From sequence record MK327929.1: DNA of 64,000 nt; one strand, given 5' to 3'. This stretch comes from Escherichia phage D5505. The position numbers and the translations under genes are program-made. How positions within the stretch are numbered: the stretch's first letter is position 1; each line of letters opens with the position of its first letter. Positions 4,552-21,510 of this stretch are shown here, one piece after another. Below the pieces are notes generated by a model. The model was given only the letters and a program-made list of their open reading frames with translations, did no database searches and was not told the DNA's origin.

Positions 4552-5232
4552 TTATTTTAATGTTACGAAAGAAGAATTACGTGTTTCACGAATTAGAACT
4601 GATCCGTCACGATTAATGTAGTAAATTAAGCTAAATAAAGTTTGGTGTGCCGACGCATGTTCAAAACTAGTTGGGTGAGATTTCCAATCAGGAGTTTCAG
4701 CAATCCATTGATAAATCCACCAAGGAACAGTGCAGAATCCTGGATTTTTTCCAATCAGCTGAAGATTCGGACTAAAGTTTTCCGGAAGAGTAAATACAGA
4801 CGGCTTTTCAGATTCAATAATCTCAGCTACAGCCTGTTCGAATTTTTCTTCAACAAAAGGAGTATCTTCAATTAAAACAGTGGTATTTTCAGGAATTTTA
4901 TCCGTTTCTACTACTTCAATTTTAATGTCAGATTTAACCGGAGAATCAATCAGAAGTGCTGCCTCTGGATTGACTTCTTCATCGTCATATTTTAATCCGT
5001 CTGCAGCATCAGCAGCATCAATTAAGTCTTTAATAGATAACCCATCAGTCTCTGGCATAGGTTCACTAGCGAGCTTCTGGAGGGCTTCTTCAATATCAGC
5101 AATGATATTATCAAAAGATTTATTCTTTTTGACCTTTATACCAAACTGCTCAGCATATTCAGCTAATTTAGCTTTAGCTTCTTTGTTATCATCAAGAGCC
5201 TTCAGCTCTGCAATATAATCTTTATCTATCAT
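4552..5232 (-). CDS. inh: Inh, inhibitor of prohead protease
   Basis: 226 aa acidic protein, position and length as T4 inh. Confidence 0.65.
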   Translation of the reverse strand: MIDKDYIAELKALDDNKEAKAKLAEYAEQFGIKVKKNKSFDNIIADIEEALQKLASEPMPETDGLSIKDLIDAADAADGLKYDDEEVNPEAALLIDSPVKSDIKIEVVETDKIPENTTVLIEDTPFVEEKFEQAVAEIIESEKPSVFTLPENFSPNLQLIGKNPGFCTVPWWIYQWIAETPDWKSHPTSFEHASAHQTLFSLIYYINRDGSVLIRETRNSSFVTLK

Positions 5233-5245
5233 AATATTTCCTCAG

Positions 5246-5253
5246 TATAAATA
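5246..5253 (+). promoter_or_regulatory. late promoter TATAAATA upstream of uvsW
   Basis: Exact TATAAATA about 30 nt upstream of the uvsW ATG. Confidence 0.5.
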
Positions 5254-5282
5254 TAGATATATTTATTACATGGTATTTAGAC

Positions 5283-6794
5283 ATGACTGACATTAAAGTA
5301 CATTTTTATGATTTTAGTCACGTGAGAATTGATTGTGAAGAAAGTACATTTCATGAACTCCGTGATTTCTTTAGCTTTGAAGCTGATGGGTATCGTTTTA
5401 ATCCGAAATACAAATATGGCCACTGGGATGGACGAATCCGTCTTTTAGATTATAATCGTCTTCTTCCATTCGGCTTAGTCGGGCAAATTAAAAAGTTCTG
5501 TGATAACTTTGGCTATAAAGCCTGGATTGACCCACAAATTAACGAAAAAGAAGAATTATCAAGAAAAGATTTTGATGAATGGCTTTCTAAATTAGAAATC
5601 TATTCAGGAAATAAAAGAATTGAACCGCACTGGTATCAAAAAGATGCAGTGTTCGAAGGATTAGTTAATCGTCGTAGAATTCTTAATCTTCCAACATCCG
5701 CTGGTAAATCGTTAATTCAAGCTTTGCTTGCGCGATATTATTTGGAAAATTATGAAGGTAAAATTCTTATCATTGTTCCAACAACTGCTCTAACAACTCA
5801 GATGGCTGATGACTTCGTTGACTATCGTTTATTCAGTCATGCAATGATAAAGAAAATTGGTGGCGGAGCATCAAAAGATGATAAATATAAAAATGATGCA
5901 CCAGTCGTTGTTGGTACATGGCAAACTGTAGTAAAACAACCGAAAGAATGGTTCTCACAGTTTGGAATGATGATGAATGATGAATGCCATCTTGCTACAG
6001 GAAAAAGTATTTCATCTATCATATCAGGTTTAAATAACTGCATGTTCAAATTTGGTCTATCTGGTTCATTACGTGATGGCAAAGCCAATATCATGCAGTA
6101 TGTTGGAATGTTTGGTGAAATATTTAAGCCAGTAACGACTTCTAAGTTAATGGAAGATGGACAAGTAACTGAGCTAAAAATTAATAGTATTTTTCTTCGC
6201 TATCCCGATGAGTTCACTACTAAATTAAAGGGAAAAACTTATCAAGAAGAAATAAAAATTATTACGGGGCTTAGTAAAAGAAATAAATGGATCGCTAAAT
6301 TGGCTATTAAGCTTGCACAAAAAGATGAAAACGCTTTTGTCATGTTTAAACATGTATCACATGGTAAAGCTATTTTCGATTTAATTAAAAATGAATACGA
6401 TAAAGTTTATTACGTATCAGGGGAAGTTGATACCGAAACCCGCAATATAATGAAAACCTTAGCTGAAAATGGTAAAGGAATAATTATAGTAGCTAGTTAT
6501 GGTGTATTTTCTACTGGTATTTCAGTTAAAAATCTGCATCACGTTGTTTTAGCGCACGGTGTTAAATCAAAAATCATTGTATTACAAACAATCGGTCGTG
6601 TATTACGTAAGCATGGTTCTAAAACAATCGCAACAGTCTGGGACCTCATAGATGACTGTGGTGTCAAGCCAAAATCTGCTAATACTAAAAAGAAATATGT
6701 TCACTTGAACTATCTTTTAAAACACGGCATTGATCGTATTCAGCGCTACGCAGATGAAAAATTTAATTACGTAATGAAAACAGTTAATTTATAA
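5283..6794 (+). CDS. uvsW: UvsW, SF2 RNA-DNA/DNA helicase
   Basis: 503 aa; Walker A PTSAGKS, DECH box (MMMNDECHLATG), helicase C-terminal motifs. Confidence 0.9.
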   Translation: MTDIKVHFYDFSHVRIDCEESTFHELRDFFSFEADGYRFNPKYKYGHWDGRIRLLDYNRLLPFGLVGQIKKFCDNFGYKAWIDPQINEKEELSRKDFDEWLSKLEIYSGNKRIEPHWYQKDAVFEGLVNRRRILNLPTSAGKSLIQALLARYYLENYEGKILIIVPTTALTTQMADDFVDYRLFSHAMIKKIGGGASKDDKYKNDAPVVVGTWQTVVKQPKEWFSQFGMMMNDECHLATGKSISSIISGLNNCMFKFGLSGSLRDGKANIMQYVGMFGEIFKPVTTSKLMEDGQVTELKINSIFLRYPDEFTTKLKGKTYQEEIKIITGLSKRNKWIAKLAIKLAQKDENAFVMFKHVSHGKAIFDLIKNEYDKVYYVSGEVDTETRNIMKTLAENGKGIIIVASYGVFSTGISVKNLHHVVLAHGVKSKIIVLQTIGRVLRKHGSKTIATVWDLIDDCGVKPKSANTKKKYVHLNYLLKHGIDRIQRYADEKFNYVMKTVNL

Positions 6795-14355: not shown

Positions 14356-15320
14356 TGTATTCTTTAGAGGAATTTAATAATCAAGCAATAAACGCAGATT
14401 TCCAACGTAATAATATGTTCAGCTGTGTTTTTGCTACAACTCCATCAACTAAAAGCTCTTCGTTGATAAGTTCAATTAGCAACTTTTCTTATAATAACTT
14501 GGGCCTAAATTCAGATTGGTTAGGATTAACTCAAGGCGATATTAATCAGGGAATTACTACGCTAATTACAGCTGGCACACAAAAACTGATAAGAAAATCA
14601 GGGGTTAGTAAATATCTTATTGGTGCCATGAGTCAACGTACAGTTCAAAGTTTATTAGGCTCATTTACAGTTGGTACATATTTAATTGACTTCTTTAACA
14701 TGGCATATAACTCATCTGGATTGATGATATACTCTGTAAAAATGCCAGAGAATAGATTATCCTATGAAACTGACTGGAACTATAATTCTCCTAATATTCG
14801 TATAACTGGGAGAGAATTAGACCCTTTGGTTATTTCATTCAGAATGGATTCAGAAGCTTGTAACTATCGTGCAATGCAAGACTGGGTTAACGCTGTTCAA
14901 GACCCAGTAACTGGATTGCGTGCTTTGCCGCAAGATGTCGAGGCAGATATTCAGGTTAATCTTCATTCTCGCAATGGATTACCACATACTGCGGTGATGT
15001 TCACTGGATGCATTCCAGTGTCAGTGAGCGCTCCTGAGTTATCATATGATGGAGATAACCAAATAACTACATTTGATGTTACTTTTGCATATAGAGTCAT
15101 GCAGGCTGGAGCAGTTGATAGGCAAGCTGCGCTTGAATGGCTTGAATCTGCTGCTATAAATGGTATTCAAAGCGTTCTCGGAAATAGTGGAGGTGTTACT
15201 GGACTATCTAATTCGCTTTCACGACTCAGTAGATTAGGGGGAACTGCAGGAAGCATTTCAAACATTAATACTATGACAGGAATTGTCAATTCGCAAAGTA
15301 AAATATTAGGAGCAATATAA
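14355..15320 (+). CDS. 54: gp54 baseplate tail tube initiator
   Basis: 321 aa, synteny. Confidence 0.85.
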   Translation: MYSLEEFNNQAINADFQRNNMFSCVFATTPSTKSSSLISSISNFSYNNLGLNSDWLGLTQGDINQGITTLITAGTQKLIRKSGVSKYLIGAMSQRTVQSLLGSFTVGTYLIDFFNMAYNSSGLMIYSVKMPENRLSYETDWNYNSPNIRITGRELDPLVISFRMDSEACNYRAMQDWVNAVQDPVTGLRALPQDVEADIQVNLHSRNGLPHTAVMFTGCIPVSVSAPELSYDGDNQITTFDVTFAYRVMQAGAVDRQAALEWLESAAINGIQSVLGNSGGVTGLSNSLSRLSRLGGTAGSISNINTMTGIVNSQSKILGAI

Positions 15321-15324
15321 CAAT

Positions 15325-15342
15325 GGGGACCTTTCGGTCCCC
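15325..15342. terminator. hairpin GGGGACC-TTTC-GGTCCCC after gene 54
   Basis: perfect 7-bp GC stem followed by T-rich tract. Confidence 0.5.
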
Positions 15343-15348
15343 ATATTT

Positions 15349-15639
15349 TTATTTACGGAATGAAATGAAAGCAGCAACTGAAGCAACTAAACTGTCTTCA
15401 ATATAAACTTCAATTTTTACCGGAGCTTCTGACTCAAATTTACCTGTTACTACACCCTGAAAAATACTTTCAGTCTGTTCTGGCTTTGAAAAATTTTCAG
15501 AAGGAAAAATTCCGAACTTTTTATCTGTTCCAAAAATTTTGATAAATTCATCGTAAACTGCTTCATTAAAAGCATTATCAGCAGGAATAACGCCTTCAAC
15601 TACAAGTTCTTGACCTAAAAAGCGCAAAGAAGATTTCAT
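15349..15639 (-). CDS. hypothetical protein (alt.-3 position)
   Basis: 96-aa ORF with ATG, preceded by early promoter. Confidence 0.5.
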   Translation of the reverse strand: MKSSLRFLGQELVVEGVIPADNAFNEAVYDEFIKIFGTDKKFGIFPSENFSKPEQTESIFQGVVTGKFESEAPVKIEVYIEDSLVASVAAFISFRK

Positions 15640-15670
15640 TTTGTGTTCCTCATGTTATGTCAGTAAGACT

Positions 15671-15700
15671 ACTATAACACAACACGAGGGACTTGTAAAC
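15671..15700 (-). promoter_or_regulatory. sigma70-type early promoter (GTTTACA - 17 nt - TATAGT), copy A of a 54-bp repeat
   Basis: minus strand GTTTACAagtccctcgtgttgtgtTATAGT; identical element at 31595-31624. Confidence 0.55.
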
Positions 15701-17757
15701 TACATCTTGAACTTTTTAGACATTCCGTTGATGTTAACCAAAGAAGCTAAGATTTGAGAAACTTCGTTTTCCTCTTCTTTTGATTCTTCTACAAGGAATT
15801 GATTAAATCCAGCCATTGGACGAACTTCACCAGTTTCCATCAAATGATCGCCATCATATACTGATTCTTCTAATTGCTCAGAAGGAGGAACGATTGTACC
15901 TTCGATTAGATACTTGTTATAAGCAGTTTCTTTCATAAAGTAAGTACTTACTTTATTAATCTTCAGTAAAATTCCACGCGGTAGAATAACTTCAGCTTCT
16001 GATGGAAATCCTGATAAATGACCCGGAACGATAACTTTGATTCGCTCAGCTCCTTTAATTACCATACCCACGCTAGTTTCAGCATCTTCATTAGCATATG
16101 TAGAATGACTACCCATATGCATCAAATCTTCTGCATCAACGGAACCTTCTCCTTCACCAGAAAATACTGCACCGGAATCATCTAGAGCCATATAGTTTTT
16201 ACCATGCTCGCCGAAGATATTTGGTTTAAGCGATGTAGATACGAAGTTCTTGAAATAGAACATTTTGTTTTCAATGTTATGACGCAAAGTTTTAAAGGTA
16301 ACTTCTTGTCCGCGATAAAGCGTAGTTCCTGGAGGAAGAACTGAACCTTTAGCGAATGCAGAATCCAACGTCTCGATGTGCTTAATAGCTCGTTCCATAT
16401 ATTCTTCACGGGTAGAATCTGGTTTACCCAAAAGGAACGAGTTCATTTCAACATATGAATCTGCACAATAATCTTCAATTACATCAGATTCGGCCTGAGT
16501 CAGTCCTTTTGGAGTTACTTCAGTGCTTGCGTATTCATATGCCTGGGCAGCAGATTCATTAATCAATTTATAAATGCCATTCATGACAAATTGAATAATA
16601 GCTGTCTTTTCATCTGGCGTAGCTTTAGAACCTTTAACTAAATCATTAATAATTTTCTTAATAACATCAAAGCTATTAGAAATATTAATGTCAGCAAGAT
16701 CGCTTAAAATTTTATCAGTTTTATAATCAAAGAATTCTTTATTCTTTAAATATTCTTGAGAACCTTGATATGTTATATCGCTCTGCAACTTGATAGATGG
16801 ATCACGTAAACGTGCATGGGCCAATGCAATATGATTTCGGAAGCTTTCTAGTTCATAATCGCTAGATTTAAAACGAGAAGCACTTCTCATACCACCGATA
16901 GCTCCTTTGCTGAAGTTTGAACCAATCTGGATAACGCCAGAGTTCATTGGTCCTTCTGCTTTATATACCGGAACTTTAGATTCAAACTCTTGATATTTCT
17001 TGGCAGCGAAGCTATCACCCTGTAGCGAAGCATCGACAGTAGAATATTGAGCTTGTGCTGCTAATCGACGACTAATTTTAGTTTTTTGAATAACAGCTTG
17101 ATCCGTGCGCTTATCATTTTCTAAAGCAATAGAAGCAGCAACAGCGACAGCTTTAGGAACAGCATTACCTGTTTTAACATCTACATAAACATCACCGACC
17201 TTCGATTCAACTTTTGTGAATAACTCAGTTGAAATAGGAGGTACACCTGGAATGTCTTCTAAATTGGCATTTTTACGGTAAACCATAATATATGCATACT
17301 TTTTATCATAGTCCCAGATTTCCTTTAAAAGAACATATCGACCTGCTCCTTTAGTACGTACTAAACGGTCAGCAATAACTTGCATTTGACGAGCAGCGCC
17401 ATTTGTTTTACTCTTTAGTACGCGGAATAAGCATGCATCAATTTTATACTGTTTCATTGTTTGAAGAGCAGTATCAAAAACAGCGTTAATGACGCCAATT
17501 GGATTTCCACCCAAGTTTCTAAGTTTAACCAGTGATAATTTCTCGTTGACACCTATCATTACGATATGCATCATTTTATCGCCCGGCTTAACGTTTTTAT
17601 TTGTATCACCTCCAGAGGTGTATGTACAAAATCTAAATCCAGGAAGCACGCTTTCTTCGCCGGCTTGAATAGCAAAAATTTGAGGTATTTTATGCTTAGG
17701 ATTTAAGTTAACAACCGGCGCCGAAGCGCCGTCAAATAATTCTGTAATAAGTTCCAT
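15700..17757 (-). CDS. Alt-like ADP-ribosyltransferase paralog
   Basis: 685 aa; N-terminus MELITELFD shared with Alt; R-S-E ART motifs LYRGQ, FVSTSL, EVILPRG; divergent C-terminal half. Confidence 0.8.
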   Translation of the reverse strand: MELITELFDGASAPVVNLNPKHKIPQIFAIQAGEESVLPGFRFCTYTSGGDTNKNVKPGDKMMHIVMIGVNEKLSLVKLRNLGGNPIGVINAVFDTALQTMKQYKIDACLFRVLKSKTNGAARQMQVIADRLVRTKGAGRYVLLKEIWDYDKKYAYIMVYRKNANLEDIPGVPPISTELFTKVESKVGDVYVDVKTGNAVPKAVAVAASIALENDKRTDQAVIQKTKISRRLAAQAQYSTVDASLQGDSFAAKKYQEFESKVPVYKAEGPMNSGVIQIGSNFSKGAIGGMRSASRFKSSDYELESFRNHIALAHARLRDPSIKLQSDITYQGSQEYLKNKEFFDYKTDKILSDLADINISNSFDVIKKIINDLVKGSKATPDEKTAIIQFVMNGIYKLINESAAQAYEYASTEVTPKGLTQAESDVIEDYCADSYVEMNSFLLGKPDSTREEYMERAIKHIETLDSAFAKGSVLPPGTTLYRGQEVTFKTLRHNIENKMFYFKNFVSTSLKPNIFGEHGKNYMALDDSGAVFSGEGEGSVDAEDLMHMGSHSTYANEDAETSVGMVIKGAERIKVIVPGHLSGFPSEAEVILPRGILLKINKVSTYFMKETAYNKYLIEGTIVPPSEQLEESVYDGDHLMETGEVRPMAGFNQFLVEESKEEENEVSQILASLVNINGMSKKFKM

Positions 17758-17760
17758 GAT

Positions 17761-19809
17761 TTATCCTTGAACGAACTTGTAAGGCATGTTTGCAATATCT
17801 ATGCAAGACGCAATAATTCCAAGAGATGATTCTACTTTCTGTTTAACATTTGATGAAACAAATGATGCAAAGTCAACTCTATCTTCTATATCACCTGTCA
17901 TTGTAACCAATTCACCAGTTTCCATTAAATGGTCTCCGTCATAGATTACCGATTCGGTGAGTTCTTCTGTGGTCATAACTTCAGCTTGAATAAGCTTGTT
18001 GTTAGTTTTAACTGTTCCATCATTGTAAGATGCATCGGTTATTTTATTAACTTTGACCATTAATCCACGTGGCAAAATGACTTCCATTTCATTTGAAGGT
18101 GCTAAACTTCCACCGGGTAAAACAACATTGACCTTATCAGCCCCAGTAATAACCCATCCAATTCCAACTAAATTATCGCTAGAATTTACTAGTCCTTCAT
18201 CAGTTTTATCAATAGAAACACTTAGACGCTTTTCGTCTGGTAAAACACCTACAGATGAATCAGTCATCCAAGTACCAAAAATATTTGGATATAATGATGT
18301 TGACACAAAGTTTCTAAAATAAAAAACTCGATTTTTTACCATTGCTTCATATATTGAAGGTAACATTCGTTGTGAACGATACAAAGTAATACCTTTTGGT
18401 AATCGTTCACCATTTTTAAAGGCTGAATCTAAATTATCAATAGCTTTTTCTATGTCAGATGCTGTCAAAATACTTGTACGCTCATCTGGATTATATAATC
18501 CCAAAAGAGCATTATTTATATCTACATATCCTGAACCTACGTATTCACGAATTCCGCGTTTTTGCGCCGGTGTGTATTTAGATGAATCTTTATTTTCGAC
18601 TATAGGATGTAATGACCATCCAGCTGTAAGAGCATATCCACGTAATTCTCTTCGAATAATCTTTGTTTTTATTGCATTCCAAGAATTTTGTACTAACTCA
18701 TTTGCAGCATCTTGATTTAAATGCGAATGTTTGTTAATATTTCTTTCAAACCAAGCACCTTTATATTTTTCTAAAGTATCATCGACGATAGAAGCAATAG
18801 TTTCTAAAGTTTTTATTGAAGTAATAGATTCTTTTCGTAATCTTTCTAAAGCTTTATTTTTTATTTCTGTATTAACATCAGATTCTTTATCTTCAGGAAT
18901 TATAGAAGCTTCTCTGAATGCCATTCCAGCTGTAACACTATTAAGAGCATTCTCTAATGCAAATCCTGAAGTAGAAATAACAGTTAATTCGTTAGCATCG
19001 GAAATTAAAGGCGCATCAGCGGGTTTATTTAATTCTGCTGCTGAAGCCTCAAATTTTTGAAACATCGGTGTTTCAAATCTAGAAGATTCCAATGATTGAC
19101 TTTGCGCAATTGCTCTACGGGAAATTTTAACTTTAACGATTACAGCTTGGTCAGAACGTTTATCATTTTCTTGTGCAATAGATGCTGCAATTGCCTCATT
19201 TTTAGTTACTTGAGCTCCAGTATCTTTATTGATATAAACATCACCGACCTTCGATTCAACTTTAGTAAAGAGCTCGGTACTAATTTCTGGAACTCCTGGA
19301 ATGTCTTCTAGTGATACATTTTTGCGATGTATAAGAATATATGCATACTTTTTATCATAATCCCAGAGTTCCTTAAGAAGGACGTATCTGCCACCTGAAC
19401 GACTACGGATAAGTCTATCAGCAATAACTTGAATTTGTCGAGCTTGACCAGCGGTTTTAGACTTAAGAATACGGAGCATACAAGCATCAATTTTATATTG
19501 ACGCATTGTTTGCATTGCAACAGTAAAAACTGAATTGATATAATTAATTGGGCTTGGCCCAAGACCTTTCAATTTAGCAATTGAACCTTTAGCGGTTAAT
19601 GTAAAAGGAACAATATGCATCATTTTATCGCCCATTTTTAAATCGCGATTAGTATCACCTCCAGATGTATAGGTACATAAACGAAAGCCTGGCTGTTCAA
19701 TTGCATCATCAACGTGAACTGAAAAAATTTGCGGTATTTTCTTCTTTGGATTTAAGTTTGTAATCGGAAGAGTAGTATCTTCGTCAAATAATTCTGTAAT
19801 GAGTTCCAT
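17761..19809 (-). CDS. alt: Alt ADP-ribosyltransferase (packaged, injected)
   Basis: 682 aa from second ATG; motifs LYRSQ, FVSTSL, EVILPRG; matches remembered T4 Alt. Confidence 0.85.
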   Translation of the reverse strand: MELITELFDEDTTLPITNLNPKKKIPQIFSVHVDDAIEQPGFRLCTYTSGGDTNRDLKMGDKMMHIVPFTLTAKGSIAKLKGLGPSPINYINSVFTVAMQTMRQYKIDACMLRILKSKTAGQARQIQVIADRLIRSRSGGRYVLLKELWDYDKKYAYILIHRKNVSLEDIPGVPEISTELFTKVESKVGDVYINKDTGAQVTKNEAIAASIAQENDKRSDQAVIVKVKISRRAIAQSQSLESSRFETPMFQKFEASAAELNKPADAPLISDANELTVISTSGFALENALNSVTAGMAFREASIIPEDKESDVNTEIKNKALERLRKESITSIKTLETIASIVDDTLEKYKGAWFERNINKHSHLNQDAANELVQNSWNAIKTKIIRRELRGYALTAGWSLHPIVENKDSSKYTPAQKRGIREYVGSGYVDINNALLGLYNPDERTSILTASDIEKAIDNLDSAFKNGERLPKGITLYRSQRMLPSIYEAMVKNRVFYFRNFVSTSLYPNIFGTWMTDSSVGVLPDEKRLSVSIDKTDEGLVNSSDNLVGIGWVITGADKVNVVLPGGSLAPSNEMEVILPRGLMVKVNKITDASYNDGTVKTNNKLIQAEVMTTEELTESVIYDGDHLMETGELVTMTGDIEDRVDFASFVSSNVKQKVESSLGIIASCIDIANMPYKFVQG

Positions 19810-19832
19810 CATATCCTCTCTAGTGTTTATTC

Positions 19833-19840
19833 TATTTATA
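19833..19840 (-). promoter_or_regulatory. late promoter TATAAATA upstream of alt
   Basis: plus TATTTATA about 20 nt upstream of alt start. Confidence 0.5.
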
Positions 19841-19861
19841 AAATTAAAGGCCCGAAGGCCT

Positions 19862-20050
19862 TTAATAATCTATTGGTAAGAGAGTACGGTATATTTCAAA
19901 CTTTGGACCTTTTTCATAGGCATCAAATGTTTCTGTGAATTTATTATAAGCATATGCATCTACAAATTCGAGAATGACTTGTGATACAGAAGTAGAAACA
20001 TCTCCACCTTCTTTTTGAGCAATGACAATTGTTTCTAAGTAAGCTTTCAT
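19862..20050 (-). CDS. hypothetical protein
   Basis: 62-aa ORF, ATGA overlap with the gene 30 stop. Confidence 0.4.
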   Translation of the reverse strand: MKAYLETIVIAQKEGGDVSTSVSQVILEFVDAYAYNKFTETFDAYEKGPKFEIYRTLLPIDY

Positions 20051-21510
20051 AGACCAGTTACCTCATGAAAATCACCAAATACATCCTCGAATGTATTAGC
20101 TTTAGTTTTATCTTCACGTAAACGAATCGCAATCGGAAGAAATAATTTAACGTAATCAGTGCGGCCATCAGATTTTAACCAACCGTTGCATTCGCACTCT
20201 AGAATTTTTCCAATATAATAATTTTGGTTTTCCATAATGCGAGTACGGTCAAGTTCATGCGATTTTACACCGGCTTTATCTTTTAAGCCTGAACCAGCAT
20301 TTACTTTAATTTTTCCACACTCTGACTCAAGAATAAATCCACCTGCTTTAGTAGGGTCTTTACGGTGAGGATAAATTCCTACAATTTTTAAATCAACATC
20401 AATTACTTCTTTAAATTTATAGAGATTTTTTGAACGAGCATTTTCCCATAATCCATCGATATTTTTGAGAATAATACCTTCAAGACCTTGGTCAATATAC
20501 TTTTTATAAATTACCTTAGCTTCATCTAGGTTATTTACTACCTGGTTTTCAATTAAAATTACTTTATCATATCCCGATGTCATTTGTTCTAGTTTAGAAA
20601 AACGTACATCATATTTTAAACGAAACGCTGGAAGACCGTATATTTCTACCAACGGGACATAATCCCAGACCTGAAACTTCATACATTGAGCTTCTTTTTC
20701 AGAAATGGTTCCTTTTAAGGATTTATTGGCGATTCCATTAGAAGTAGTACGAGATTCCGCTACTTCGGCGAATTCTTTGGCTTTACTAATTTCAGGATAA
20801 GCATCAAAAAGAAAATCTAGGCCTTCTGGTTCCTTTTTAACTTGCTCATGGTATACCAATTCGCCATCAATTAACACACCTTCTGGATGAATCTGGCGGG
20901 CTTCAGCAGTCATTTTGATTAACTCTTCCTTAAGAAGATCTAATCCTAGATATTCATTACCAGCTCGTGATAAAAGACGAACATCATCTAATTCATCGCC
21001 TCGGACTTCAGCAAAACACCGAGCTCCATCTGCTTTTAACTGCGCAAAGGCTGGAAACTTGATATTCTTATTAATGCCTTTTTCATCATAAGAACTTGCA
21101 AGCATTTGAGGTTGTTCAGGAATTAAACCTGGCCAAACTTTATTTGCAATAGATACTGAAGCACCGCATTCAAGGTCTCGCATCATAACTCGACGCAAAA
21201 CTTCAACATCATCCTTTTTACCATCAGTGATATATCCAGTTAATTCCTCAATTGCAGCATTTCCAGTCAATTTCCGAGTAGCTAACGTGAATTCAATGAA
21301 GTCAAGCATATCGGTAATAGTCAGCATTCCAAAACTCTGGGTAGCAATACCCGGTTTAGGCCATTTCTTGATATAATACTGTAACCCACGAGAATAAGTC
21401 AGACGATATACTCGTTTAAGCAATTCATTATCTTTATTCTTTTCAAGAATTGCTTGCTTCTGCTTAGTTGAACCAATAGATGCTATTTCGTTCAGAATTT
21501 TAAGAATCAT
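20047..21510 (-). CDS. 30: ATP-dependent DNA ligase gp30
   Basis: 487 aa; adenylation motif AQLKADGARCF. Confidence 0.9.
   Translation of the reverse strand: MILKILNEIASIGSTKQKQAILEKNKDNELLKRVYRLTYSRGLQYYIKKWPKPGIATQSFGMLTITDMLDFIEFTLATRKLTGNAAIEELTGYITDGKKDDVEVLRRVMMRDLECGASVSIANKVWPGLIPEQPQMLASSYDEKGINKNIKFPAFAQLKADGARCFAEVRGDELDDVRLLSRAGNEYLGLDLLKEELIKMTAEARQIHPEGVLIDGELVYHEQVKKEPEGLDFLFDAYPEISKAKEFAEVAESRTTSNGIANKSLKGTISEKEAQCMKFQVWDYVPLVEIYGLPAFRLKYDVRFSKLEQMTSGYDKVILIENQVVNNLDEAKVIYKKYIDQGLEGIILKNIDGLWENARSKNLYKFKEVIDVDLKIVGIYPHRKDPTKAGGFILESECGKIKVNAGSGLKDKAGVKSHELDRTRIMENQNYYIGKILECECNGWLKSDGRTDYVKLFLPIAIRLREDKTKANTFEDVFGDFHEVTGL

Follow-up and report, generated by a model that had tools for sequence, protein, structure and literature searches.

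An intact second Alt-family ADP-ribosyltransferase gene beside alt in Escherichia phage D5505, with a decayed counterpart in phage T4

We analyzed a 64,000-nucleotide stretch of Escherichia phage D5505 (MK327929.1), which we call the window, and all positions refer to it. The ORF listing includes two adjacent reading frames, 15700..17757 (685 aa) and 17761..19812 (683 aa), both on the minus strand. The original prediction of two tandem Alt-family ORFs at 15700-19812 matches these coordinates and lengths exactly. It did not mention the minus strand, and it called the 17761-19812 copy the downstream one. This is correct in plus-strand coordinates, but because both genes are on the minus strand, transcription reaches this copy (the ortholog of T4 Alt) before the paralog at 15700-17757. 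We refer to the two genes as alt and alt2. They lie between DNA ligase/alt.1 and alt.-3/gene 54 and have a putative late promoter, which is the setting of an Alt-family locus. In the order of transcription, the features are:

19862..20050, minus strand: alt.1 ortholog, 62 aa (ORF; Pfam PF24647, 2.1e-29; same position as T4 alt.1)
19846..19863, minus strand: terminator-like hairpin AAAGGCC-TTCG-GGCCTTT, read from the sequence (a putative terminator is annotated there in phage G28)
19833..19840, minus strand: T4-type late promoter box TATAAATA; the first alt ATG is 20 nt downstream
17761..19812, minus strand: alt, the T4 Alt ortholog (identity to T4; PF03496, 1.1e-35; phrog_802, 2e-263)
17764..17768, minus strand: Shine-Dalgarno-like AAGGA within the last alt codons, read from the sequence
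15700..17757, minus strand: alt2, intact second Alt-family ADP-ribosyltransferase, 685 aa (PF03496, 5.8e-20; phrog_802, 2e-256)
15671..15699, minus strand: sigma-70/T4-early-like promoter TTTACA-17-TATAGT (with TG), a consensus match only
15349..15639, minus strand: alt.-3 ortholog, 96 aa, DUF5498 (PF17602, 1.4e-64; matches translated T4 alt.-3)
15323..15344, both strands: bidirectional hairpin terminator between alt.-3 and gene 54 (annotated as a terminator in phage G28)

The alt.1 ortholog precedes alt and overlaps the end of the DNA ligase gene 30 (20047-21510). At the other end, the alt.-3 ortholog is the final gene of the leftward unit and is convergent with gene 54; the hairpin at 15323..15344 has a 9-bp stem with 6 GC pairs and T-runs on both strands. 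The hairpin at 19846..19863 overlaps the alt.1 stop codon (19864-19862) at its final two bases and extends just beyond it. This terminator-like element may divide an early/middle unit from the late alt promoter. The late-promoter 8-mer TATAAATA occurs 12 times in the window versus 8.8 expected, which is not an enrichment, so the promoter assignment at 19833..19840 rests on position; that position suits a late gene. A box scan of the window found no late-promoter box between alt and alt2. Just 3 nt separate the alt stop codon TAA (17763-17761) from the alt2 ATG (17757), and this arrangement, along with the AAGGA, suggests that alt and alt2 are co-transcribed and translationally coupled. The promoter match at 15671..15699 is directly 3' of the alt2 stop and upstream of alt.-3; the promoter scan as a whole was not above chance.

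The first gene encodes a protein that is identical to T4 Alt (NP_049811) at 675 of 682 residues (99%) over its full length, so the statement in the original prediction that this copy matches T4 Alt was right. The length of 683 aa counts from the first of two adjacent ATGs, while T4 Alt uses the second (19809), which gives 682 aa. The motifs of Alt are LYRSQ (476-480), FVSTSL (501-506), and E-M-E-VILPRG (574-582), with catalytic residues R478, S503/S505, and E574/E576. T4 Alt is cleaved by gp21 at ITE-6 and LTE-619 to give a product of 68.2 kDa (PMC5694885). Both cleavage motifs are present in Alt at the same positions, and the computed mass of residues 7-619 (68.2 kDa) agrees with this. T4 Alt is an enzyme of host takeover and is not essential (PMC9026906), and the word "toxin" that had been applied to these proteins is loose.

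The protein encoded by alt2 can be divided as follows:

17053..17757, minus strand: codons 1-235, N-terminal propeptide and alpha/beta N-terminal domain (63-69% identity to Alt)
16513..17052, minus strand: codons 236-415, divergent all-helical middle domain (22% identity to Alt; AF2 helices)
15883..16512, minus strand: codons 416-625, ART catalytic domain
15703..15864, minus strand: codons 632-685, predicted C-terminal propeptide after the L-E-E631 motif and before S (homologous to the T4 Alt LTE-619 site)

Alt2 has the motifs LYRGQ (480-484), FVSTSL (505-510), and E-A-E-VILPRG (587-595). The codons of the catalytic residues, all on the minus strand, are at 16312-16314 (R482), 16237-16239 (S507), 16231-16233 (S509), 15997-15999 (E587), and 15991-15993 (E589). 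The R-S-E motifs that the original prediction quoted are therefore all found in both proteins. Missing catalytic residues had been named beforehand as something to check for, and none are missing: in alignments, R482, S507, S509, E587, and E589 are invariant across 14 diverse members and 6 further paralogs. Both proteins exceed the gathering cut-off of PF03496, ADPrib_exo_Tox (23.4 bits), with 71.9 bits for Alt2 and 123.3 bits for Alt, and the phrog_802 profile covers Alt2 residues 1-685. The pairwise alignment and HMM searches that had been proposed (BLASTP, PF03496, phrog_802) thus identify both as Alt-family R-S-E ADP-ribosyltransferases, and Alt2 has the C3/VIP2-like ART fold expected of that family. 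The E-x-E motif is typical of arginine-specific ADP-ribosyltransferases. We infer that Alt2 transfers ADP-ribose to arginine residues of host proteins.

BLASTP aligns Alt and Alt2 at 41% identity with E = 1e-164, so similarity by chance is not an issue. We considered whether alt2 might be the ortholog of T4 Alt and rejected this, as its identity to NP_049811 is 41% overall and 22% in the middle domain. By segment (in Alt2 numbering), the identity of the two paralogs is 63% (1-60), 69% (61-235), 22% (236-415), 43% (416-520), 26% (521-570), 33% (571-625), and 42% (626-685). By region, it is about 65% up to residue 235, about 22% across the ~180 residues of the helical middle, and 26-43% in the ART domain. 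The claim that the central and C-terminal regions strongly differ holds up, with 22-43% identity in the segments past residue 235. Alt2 also differs from Alt in a variable insert (aa 521-570) and in the segment before E-x-E (LSGFPSEAE versus SLAPSNEME in Alt). The helices of the Alt2 middle domain are predicted confidently by AF2. Its identity to the corresponding part of Alt proteins from other genera, such as the JS10-type protein P0012, is 44-58%. We suspect that this domain is a substrate-selection or adaptor module.

Because the middle domain (22% identity) and the active-site loops differ, Alt2 most likely has other host targets than Alt. It seems unlikely that Alt2 is instead a redundant second copy that acts on the substrates of Alt (RNA polymerase alpha and others) and is kept for dosage or back-up. 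The AF2 models of Alt and Alt2 have the same overall architecture, so the middle domains may be diverged homologs with the same job rather than modules of different specificity, and both proteins have the E-x-E class of catalytic motif. T4 Alt is reported to modify many proteins (Depping et al. 2005, cited in PMC5512222), so its specificity is broad anyway. However, the paralogs retain just 22% identity in the middle domain and 26-33% in the active-site loops, although they are side by side and under strong purifying selection.

The two proteins begin alike (MELITELFDGA... in Alt2, MMELITELFDED... in Alt), so the conserved Alt N-terminal start that had been recognized in both ORFs is there, and both contain the N-terminal propeptide (in Alt2, aa 1-6, MELITE, followed by L). 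The alpha/beta N-terminal domain (PF26846, Tevenvirinae_ADPRT) is common to all Alt paralogs. Precomputed annotation places PF26846 on hybrids and on P0001, the cluster representative whose identity to Alt2 is 99%; the local Pfam copy gave no direct report of it on Alt2 itself. In the AF2 model, the N-terminal region is a strand/helix domain (pLDDT about 65-87), and in natural Alt/Alt2 hybrids, this module is interchangeable. Codons 1-235 are a candidate module for association with the prohead core.

At columns that are homologous to the T4 Alt cleavage sites, Alt2 has the gp21 motifs ITE-6 and LEE-631, in which E6 and E631 are invariant. The C-terminal propeptide contains conserved YDGD...METGE and KF motifs; in the alignment of 14 diverse family members, E631, Y634-D637, E641, G643, and E644 are invariant. 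Residues 630-685 are disordered in the AF2 model (pLDDT below 50). Processing of Alt2 by gp21 would yield a mature protein of about 69 kDa. We consider it highly improbable that Alt2 is not packaged or not enzymatic, that is, a late enzyme at work in the cell that produces the phage (as ModA and ModB work within infected cells) or mainly a structural protein of the core. The literature that we searched contained no report of virion proteomics on Alt2, which leaves room for this idea, and so does the weaker Pfam ART score of Alt2 (72 versus 123 bits), which counts against the explanation that we favor below. Against it, both gp21 motifs and the entire C-terminal propeptide are conserved, the N-terminal module is freely swapped with that of Alt in viable isolates, the catalytic residues are all invariant, and dN/dS is 0.03-0.06.

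Whether the paralog corresponds to a described T4 gene had been left open, and the answer is that it corresponds to alt.-1 and alt.-2, which are a remnant of alt2. T4 alt.-1 (NP_049810) matches Alt2 residues 1-54 and alt.-2 (NP_049809) matches residues 62-116, with about 97% nucleotide identity to alt2, and the PHROG families of alt.-1 and alt.-2 score higher on Alt2 than on Alt. Judged by sequence, Alt2 is a paralog of Alt and is orthologous to T4 alt.-1/alt.-2. In the T4 record, alt.-1/alt.-2 are explained as an ancient duplication of the beginning of alt; here, they are a decayed copy of a full-length paralog that is intact in most relatives, and the same gene as alt2. T4 lacks this part:

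15720..17409, no strand assigned: stretch of about 1.69 kb absent from T4, Alt2 codons about 117-680 (blastn and junction read-out)

The T4 deletion junction falls inside an 8-nt microhomology, CTTTTTAG / CTCTTTAG. In T4, alt2 is broken by a 1-nt deletion (a frameshift) in an A-run and truncated by the out-of-frame 1.69-kb deletion. Because T4 lost Alt2 in this way, alt2 is missing from the T4 literature. The T4-type junction is found in 91 of 499 related phage records (T4 and 90 others), so alt2 is dispensable, a point against the explanation that we favor.

At 95% identity or higher, about 396 phage records have an intact alt2, T2 and RB51 among them; by this comparison, alt2 is present in most T-even phages and lost from T4. 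Its dN/dS is 0.025-0.057, which indicates strong purifying selection. The first gene of the locus has T4-type or T2-type effector alleles that are very different from each other, and T4 carries the minority allele of alt. Arrays at the locus contain up to three Alt-family genes, and some phages have a single Alt/Alt2 hybrid gene that keeps only the Alt2 effector. This last pattern also fits partial redundancy: either effector is lost in nature, by the T4-type deletion in 91 records or in the single hybrids. But two very different effector alleles in the first position look like diversifying effector repertoires and not like dosage copies.

Presence/absence and allele swapping among close relatives also resemble the behavior of accessory counter-defense genes. 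Alt2 might be an anti-defense effector that is injected before gene expression and disables a host immunity or toxin protein by ADP-ribosylation, instead of reprogramming transcription. Delivery ahead of all phage gene expression would suit counter-defense, and the MazF toxin is a reported ADP-ribosylation target of T4 Alt. However, the sequence and context point to no particular defense system, and we found no literature on this, so we regard it as quite improbable; it is also a refinement of our preferred explanation rather than an alternative to it.

The gene itself is not new, contrary to what the original prediction had implied. Under the names "Alt2", "alt_2", or "Alt-like", it already has annotations in about 400 phage genomes, T2 among them. 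Proteins annotated as "Alt2", "alt_2", or "Alt-like RNA polymerase ADP-ribosyltransferase" are 98-100% identical to Alt2 and in the same position; examples come from WilhelmHis/Bas35 (QXV85868, "ADP-ribosyltransferase Alt2"), G4498, and T2 (AYD82791, whose CDS is noted as "alt.-1"). These sequences are no different from alt2 here, and the annotations are in name only. The possibility had been raised that the paralog would prove to be well characterized and annotated: it is annotated, but its function is not known from any work that we found, as the literature searched contained no functional study of Alt2 and no direct evidence for its presence in virions, cleavage, injection, catalytic activity, or targets. 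alt2 is an ordinary gene that is already catalogued, its family, fold, and locus are known, and nothing about it is categorically new.

Our preferred explanation, which we consider reasonably likely, is that alt and alt2 make up a late operon of two genes for two paralogous capsid-packaged mono-ADP-ribosyltransferases, with Alt2 probably having a different substrate set. Transcription would start from the late promoter at 19833-19840, whose position we see but whose use is predicted, and translation of alt2 would be coupled to that of alt, given the stop codon, 3 nt, ATG, and Shine-Dalgarno in the end of alt. Both precursors would enter the prohead core via the shared N-terminal module and the terminal propeptides, as their conservation suggests. 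Trimming by gp21 is known for T4 Alt and is predicted for Alt2 from ITE-6 and LEE-631. Ejection with the DNA is likewise known for Alt, and Alt2 would follow. Both would then transfer ADP-ribose from NAD+ to arginines of host proteins, as suggested by the C3/Vis/iota-like fold and by the R / S-T-S / E-x-E site, which is intact. The weakest step is the last, in which Alt2 would modify a host-protein set other than that of Alt. That both proteins are injected and have distinct targets, as originally suggested, is predicted from the conserved cleavage motifs and the divergent regions that face the substrate.

More tentatively, we speculate that the alt locus is a polymorphic "effector cassette" in which constant delivery parts are combined with interchangeable ART warheads. 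The delivery parts would be two propeptides cleaved by gp21 and an N-terminal module that binds the core. Tequatrovirus alone has at least three types of warhead, T4-Alt, T2-Alt, and Alt2, with between one and three genes per array, and recombination inside the conserved module may reshuffle them. Alt2 and the T2-type proteins would hit targets that T4 Alt does not, possibly immunity proteins, and the repertoire would add to host range. If this is true, then T4-based work has missed a contribution of injected ARTs to host range.

Knowledge of injected phage ADP-ribosyltransferases comes almost entirely from T4, which is a reduced case that has deleted alt2. If our inference about Alt2 holds, then a second ART is injected by about 400 sequenced relatives, T2 and many therapy candidates among them. 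A role for this second enzyme in wider host takeover or counter-defense might partly account for the dispensability of alt alone in T4. The interest is modest: T4, the model phage, under-represents the set of injected effectors.

Alt2 resembles T4 Alt (NP_049811) in its full-length Pfam/PHROG families, its locus between alt.1 and gene 54, the propeptide MELITE before L, the homologous C-terminal cleavage motif and propeptide, and the R / S-T-S / E-x-E site. It is unlike T4 Alt in the insert after S-T-S, the segment before E-x-E, and the helical middle (22%). T4 ModA and ModB are early proteins of about 200 aa, without the N-terminal packaging module or propeptides; instead of being injected, they are synthesized after infection in the host cell. 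Like Alt2, they belong to the R-S-E Alt/VIP2 clade of phage ARTs, which modify host transcription and translation proteins (PMC5512222). The bacterial proteins Vis, C3bot, CDTa, iota/CPILE-a, and VIP2 share the fold of the catalytic domain and the R-S-E motifs with Alt2, but these C3-like and binary-toxin ARTs are 14-26% identical, have wholly different delivery modules, and act on eukaryotic or small-molecule targets. [quoted passage not shown] The IPs are small and basic, with about 360 copies and a capsid-targeting sequence of 10-20 residues, whereas Alt-family proteins are enzymes of about 76 kDa, with about 40 copies and two propeptides.

The window is a segment of a Tequatrovirus (T4-like) genome. 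Over 15300-20100, it shares 99.5% identity with phages vB_EcoM-CHD94UKE2, G3F7, and WilhelmHis (Bas35). A search of phage records found 529 that match this region. The gene order is as in T4: gene 30, alt.1, two Alt-family genes, alt.-3, and then the convergent baseplate genes 54, 48, and 29. An Rfam scan of the window gave no match. The genes of the locus are:

20047-21510, DNA ligase (gene 30), placed as in T4
19862-20050, alt.1 (Pfam PF24647, "Phage blade protein")
17761-19812, - strand, alt, 683 amino acids
15700-17757, - strand, alt2, 685 amino acids
15349-15639, alt.-3 (DUF5498)

The two adjacent ORFs are thus exactly as originally predicted. The copy at 17761-19812 had been matched to T4 Alt, and 675 of 682 residues are indeed identical to T4 Alt; the extra codon at the start of the window's Alt comes solely from a second in-frame ATG. 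Both proteins belong to the Alt family, as claimed: they match the PHROG "Alt-like RNA polymerase ADP-ribosyltransferase" over their full length (E = 2e-256 for Alt2 and 2e-263 for Alt), and both pass the gathering score for Pfam's ADP-ribosyltransferase exoenzyme domain. Alt and Alt2 can be aligned over their whole length, with 41% identity (E = 1e-164).

The original prediction left it uncertain whether the upstream paralog (Alt2) corresponds to a T4 gene. It does. In T4, what lies between alt and alt.-3 is a pair of small ORFs, alt.-1 and alt.-2 (5065-5451 of the T4 locus compared here); the T4 record explains them as an old duplicate of the start of alt. Their translations are near-identical to residues 1-54 and 62-116 of Alt2, not to Alt, and the PHROG families of these two ORFs give Alt2 roughly double the score that they give Alt. 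By DNA alignment, 15720-17409 of the window (~1.69 kb) is absent from T4. The deletion junction, which is out of frame, falls in an 8-nt microhomology (CTTTTTAG / CTCTTTAG), and the remnant is split into two ORFs by a 1-nt deletion in an A-run. The match to the remnant, the 1.69-kb gap, and the A-run deletion indicate that T4 carries a decayed copy of the gene that is intact in the window. Sequence comparison thus places Alt2 firmly in the family of T4 Alt, as the orthologue of alt.-1/alt.-2. Because alt.-1/alt.-2 are ~97% identical in DNA to intact alt2 genes in relatives, and because the microhomology junction is clean, they appear to derive from the full-length gene by a fairly recent deletion.

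Among the records of our phage collection, 396 carry an Alt2 with at least 95% identity, T2 and RB51 among them. The T4-type junction is found in 91 of 499 related records, which include natural isolates as well as laboratory stocks of T4; slur03, SG1, and JEP6 are among the natural isolates with this junction.

The novelty implied by the original prediction did not hold up, as the gene is already known and named in public records. GenBank names for the intact gene include "ADP-ribosyltransferase Alt2" (in Bas35), "alt_2", "Alt-like RNA polymerase ADP-ribosyltransferase", and, in T2, "hypothetical protein, alt.-1". Paralogous duplications of alt in T4-like phages were noted by Nolan et al. 2006 (PMC1524935). 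We found no functional study of Alt2 in the literature we searched, which covered Alt2 itself, the T4 ORFs alt.-1/alt.-2, Alt-like proteins, and the Alt of T2 and T6.

alt2 appears to be an intact enzyme gene. Relative to the orthologues from T2 and G28, its dN/dS is 0.025-0.057 (42-88 synonymous and 4-20 non-synonymous differences). On these low ratios (0.03-0.06), and because hundreds of genomes keep the 685-aa frame intact, we rejected the idea that alt2 is a decaying pseudogene. The R-S-E motifs that had been reported also survive careful alignment: R482, S507 and S509 (S-T-S), and E587 and E589 (E-x-E) are invariant in 14 diverse family members, and they remain so after adding the T2 allele of Alt and three paralogues from phage LQ5.

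The divergence between the two proteins is uneven. For each segment of Alt2 (in its own numbering), the identity to Alt is:

1-60, 63%
61-235, 69%
236-415, 22%
416-520, 43%
521-570, 26%
571-625, 33%
626-685, 42%

The central and C-terminal regions are therefore divergent, as first described, with 22% identity at 236-415 and 26-43% over 416-685. Conservation holds at the ends associated with delivery. It is lost in the middle domain, in the insert that follows S-T-S, and in the residues preceding E-x-E (LSGFPSEAE in Alt2 versus SLAPSNEME in Alt). For C3-like and iota-like enzymes, part of substrate recognition comes from the loop that precedes the catalytic glutamates, and this is the main reason that we expect different substrates for Alt2. 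The proposal that Alt2 is injected and has targets distinct from those of Alt is reasonable but unproven.

We also compared AlphaFold2 models. In the model of Alt2 (mean pLDDT 74), an alpha/beta N-terminal domain (~1-195) leads through linker helices into an all-helical middle (~250-470); the ADP-ribosyltransferase (ART) core and a disordered tail (630-685) complete the four parts. The model of Alt (pLDDT 68) has the same layout of secondary structure, so the middle domains may be very diverged homologues rather than unrelated insertions. A fold comparison was needed, because a search of PDB sequences found no match for Alt2 and just a marginal match of Alt to CDTa (E = 0.0094). With Alt2 residues 234-444 (211 amino acids of the divergent middle) as the query, a word-indexed protein search gave no match and so missed even the parent cluster, which we take as a limit of the word index; full-length Alt2 as the query did retrieve a 99%-identical cluster, of 772 members.

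Mass spectrometry of T4 Alt has shown that 6 N-terminal residues (ITE-6) and 63 C-terminal residues (LTE-619) are removed to give a mature protein of 68.2 kDa (PMC5694885; processing is reviewed in PMC9026906). Residues 7-619 of the window's Alt have a computed mass of 68.2 kDa, which confirms our mapping of the cleavage sites. Alt2 has ITE-6 as well, and it has LEE-631 at the column homologous to the T4 Alt site. E6, E631, and the YDGD/ETGE motifs after E631 are invariant across the family. From these conserved motifs, it is well motivated to infer that Alt2 is packaged, cleaved, and ejected; the predicted mature Alt2 is 69.1 kDa.

Upstream of alt, at a distance of 20 nt and just past the hairpin that follows alt.1, is the T4 late-promoter box TATAAATA; there is no such box between alt and alt2. 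The stop codon of alt is separated from the ATG of alt2 by a 3-nt gap, with AAGGA within the last codons of alt. Together, these features lead us to infer that alt and alt2 would share one late transcript and that their translation would be coupled. Another copy of TATAAATA falls within alt (18513-18520, - strand). We considered it as a promoter dedicated to alt2 and rejected it: it is ~750 nt upstream, and the 8-mer is not enriched in the window (12 found versus 8.8 in shuffles). A sigma-70 scan of the region was at chance level (17 found versus 18.4 expected), and the sole site listed from it, directly upstream of alt.-3, is a tentative candidate.

The locus also varies in which warhead it encodes, by which we mean the middle plus the ART part, as opposed to the N-terminal delivery module. 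The first-position alt is dimorphic. The allele in T2 and G28 (904-2997 in each of the two loci; compared with 17761-19809 of the window) encodes 697 amino acids. It is identical to T4 Alt over about residues 1-240; identity is 80-95% across roughly the final 110 residues and only 17-73% between these two stretches. At 90% identity or above, 174 records have the T4-type warhead and 319 have the T2-type. In some phages, a single hybrid gene with the N-terminus of Alt and the warhead of Alt2 is alone between alt.1 and alt.-3, for example in:

L007:4001-6055, metagenome contig
L008:4001-6061, metagenome contig
JX128259, phage ECML-134
ON506924, phage SCS4
KF208315, Yersinia phage PST

We rejected the idea that the hybrids (protein clusters P0003, P0005, and P0006) are assembly chimeras, as a single such gene is present in cultured isolates (ECML-134, SCS4, and PST) and the DNA of alt and alt2 is just ~69% identical. 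The crossovers differ between cases (near residue 55 or residue 195). The hybrids imply unequal recombination between the tandem paralogues, and their state is reciprocal to that of T4, which keeps only the Alt warhead. alt.1 and alt.-3 are in place in every variant of the locus that we examined (two-gene, T4-deleted, and hybrid).

Escherichia phage LQ5 carries three Alt-family ORFs in tandem (L006:1012-7124; 631, 693, and 707 amino acids), all with PF03496 and the invariant catalytic residues, so the array can reach three genes in other Tevenvirinae. These variants show that either warhead can be lost and that the N-terminal module is interchangeable; recombination within this module reshuffles the array. 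It is of modest interest that T4, the model phage, represents a reduced state of a variable locus for injected effectors. Alt proteins of other genera, such as those of the JS10 type, have the Alt2-type middle in common (44-58% identity).
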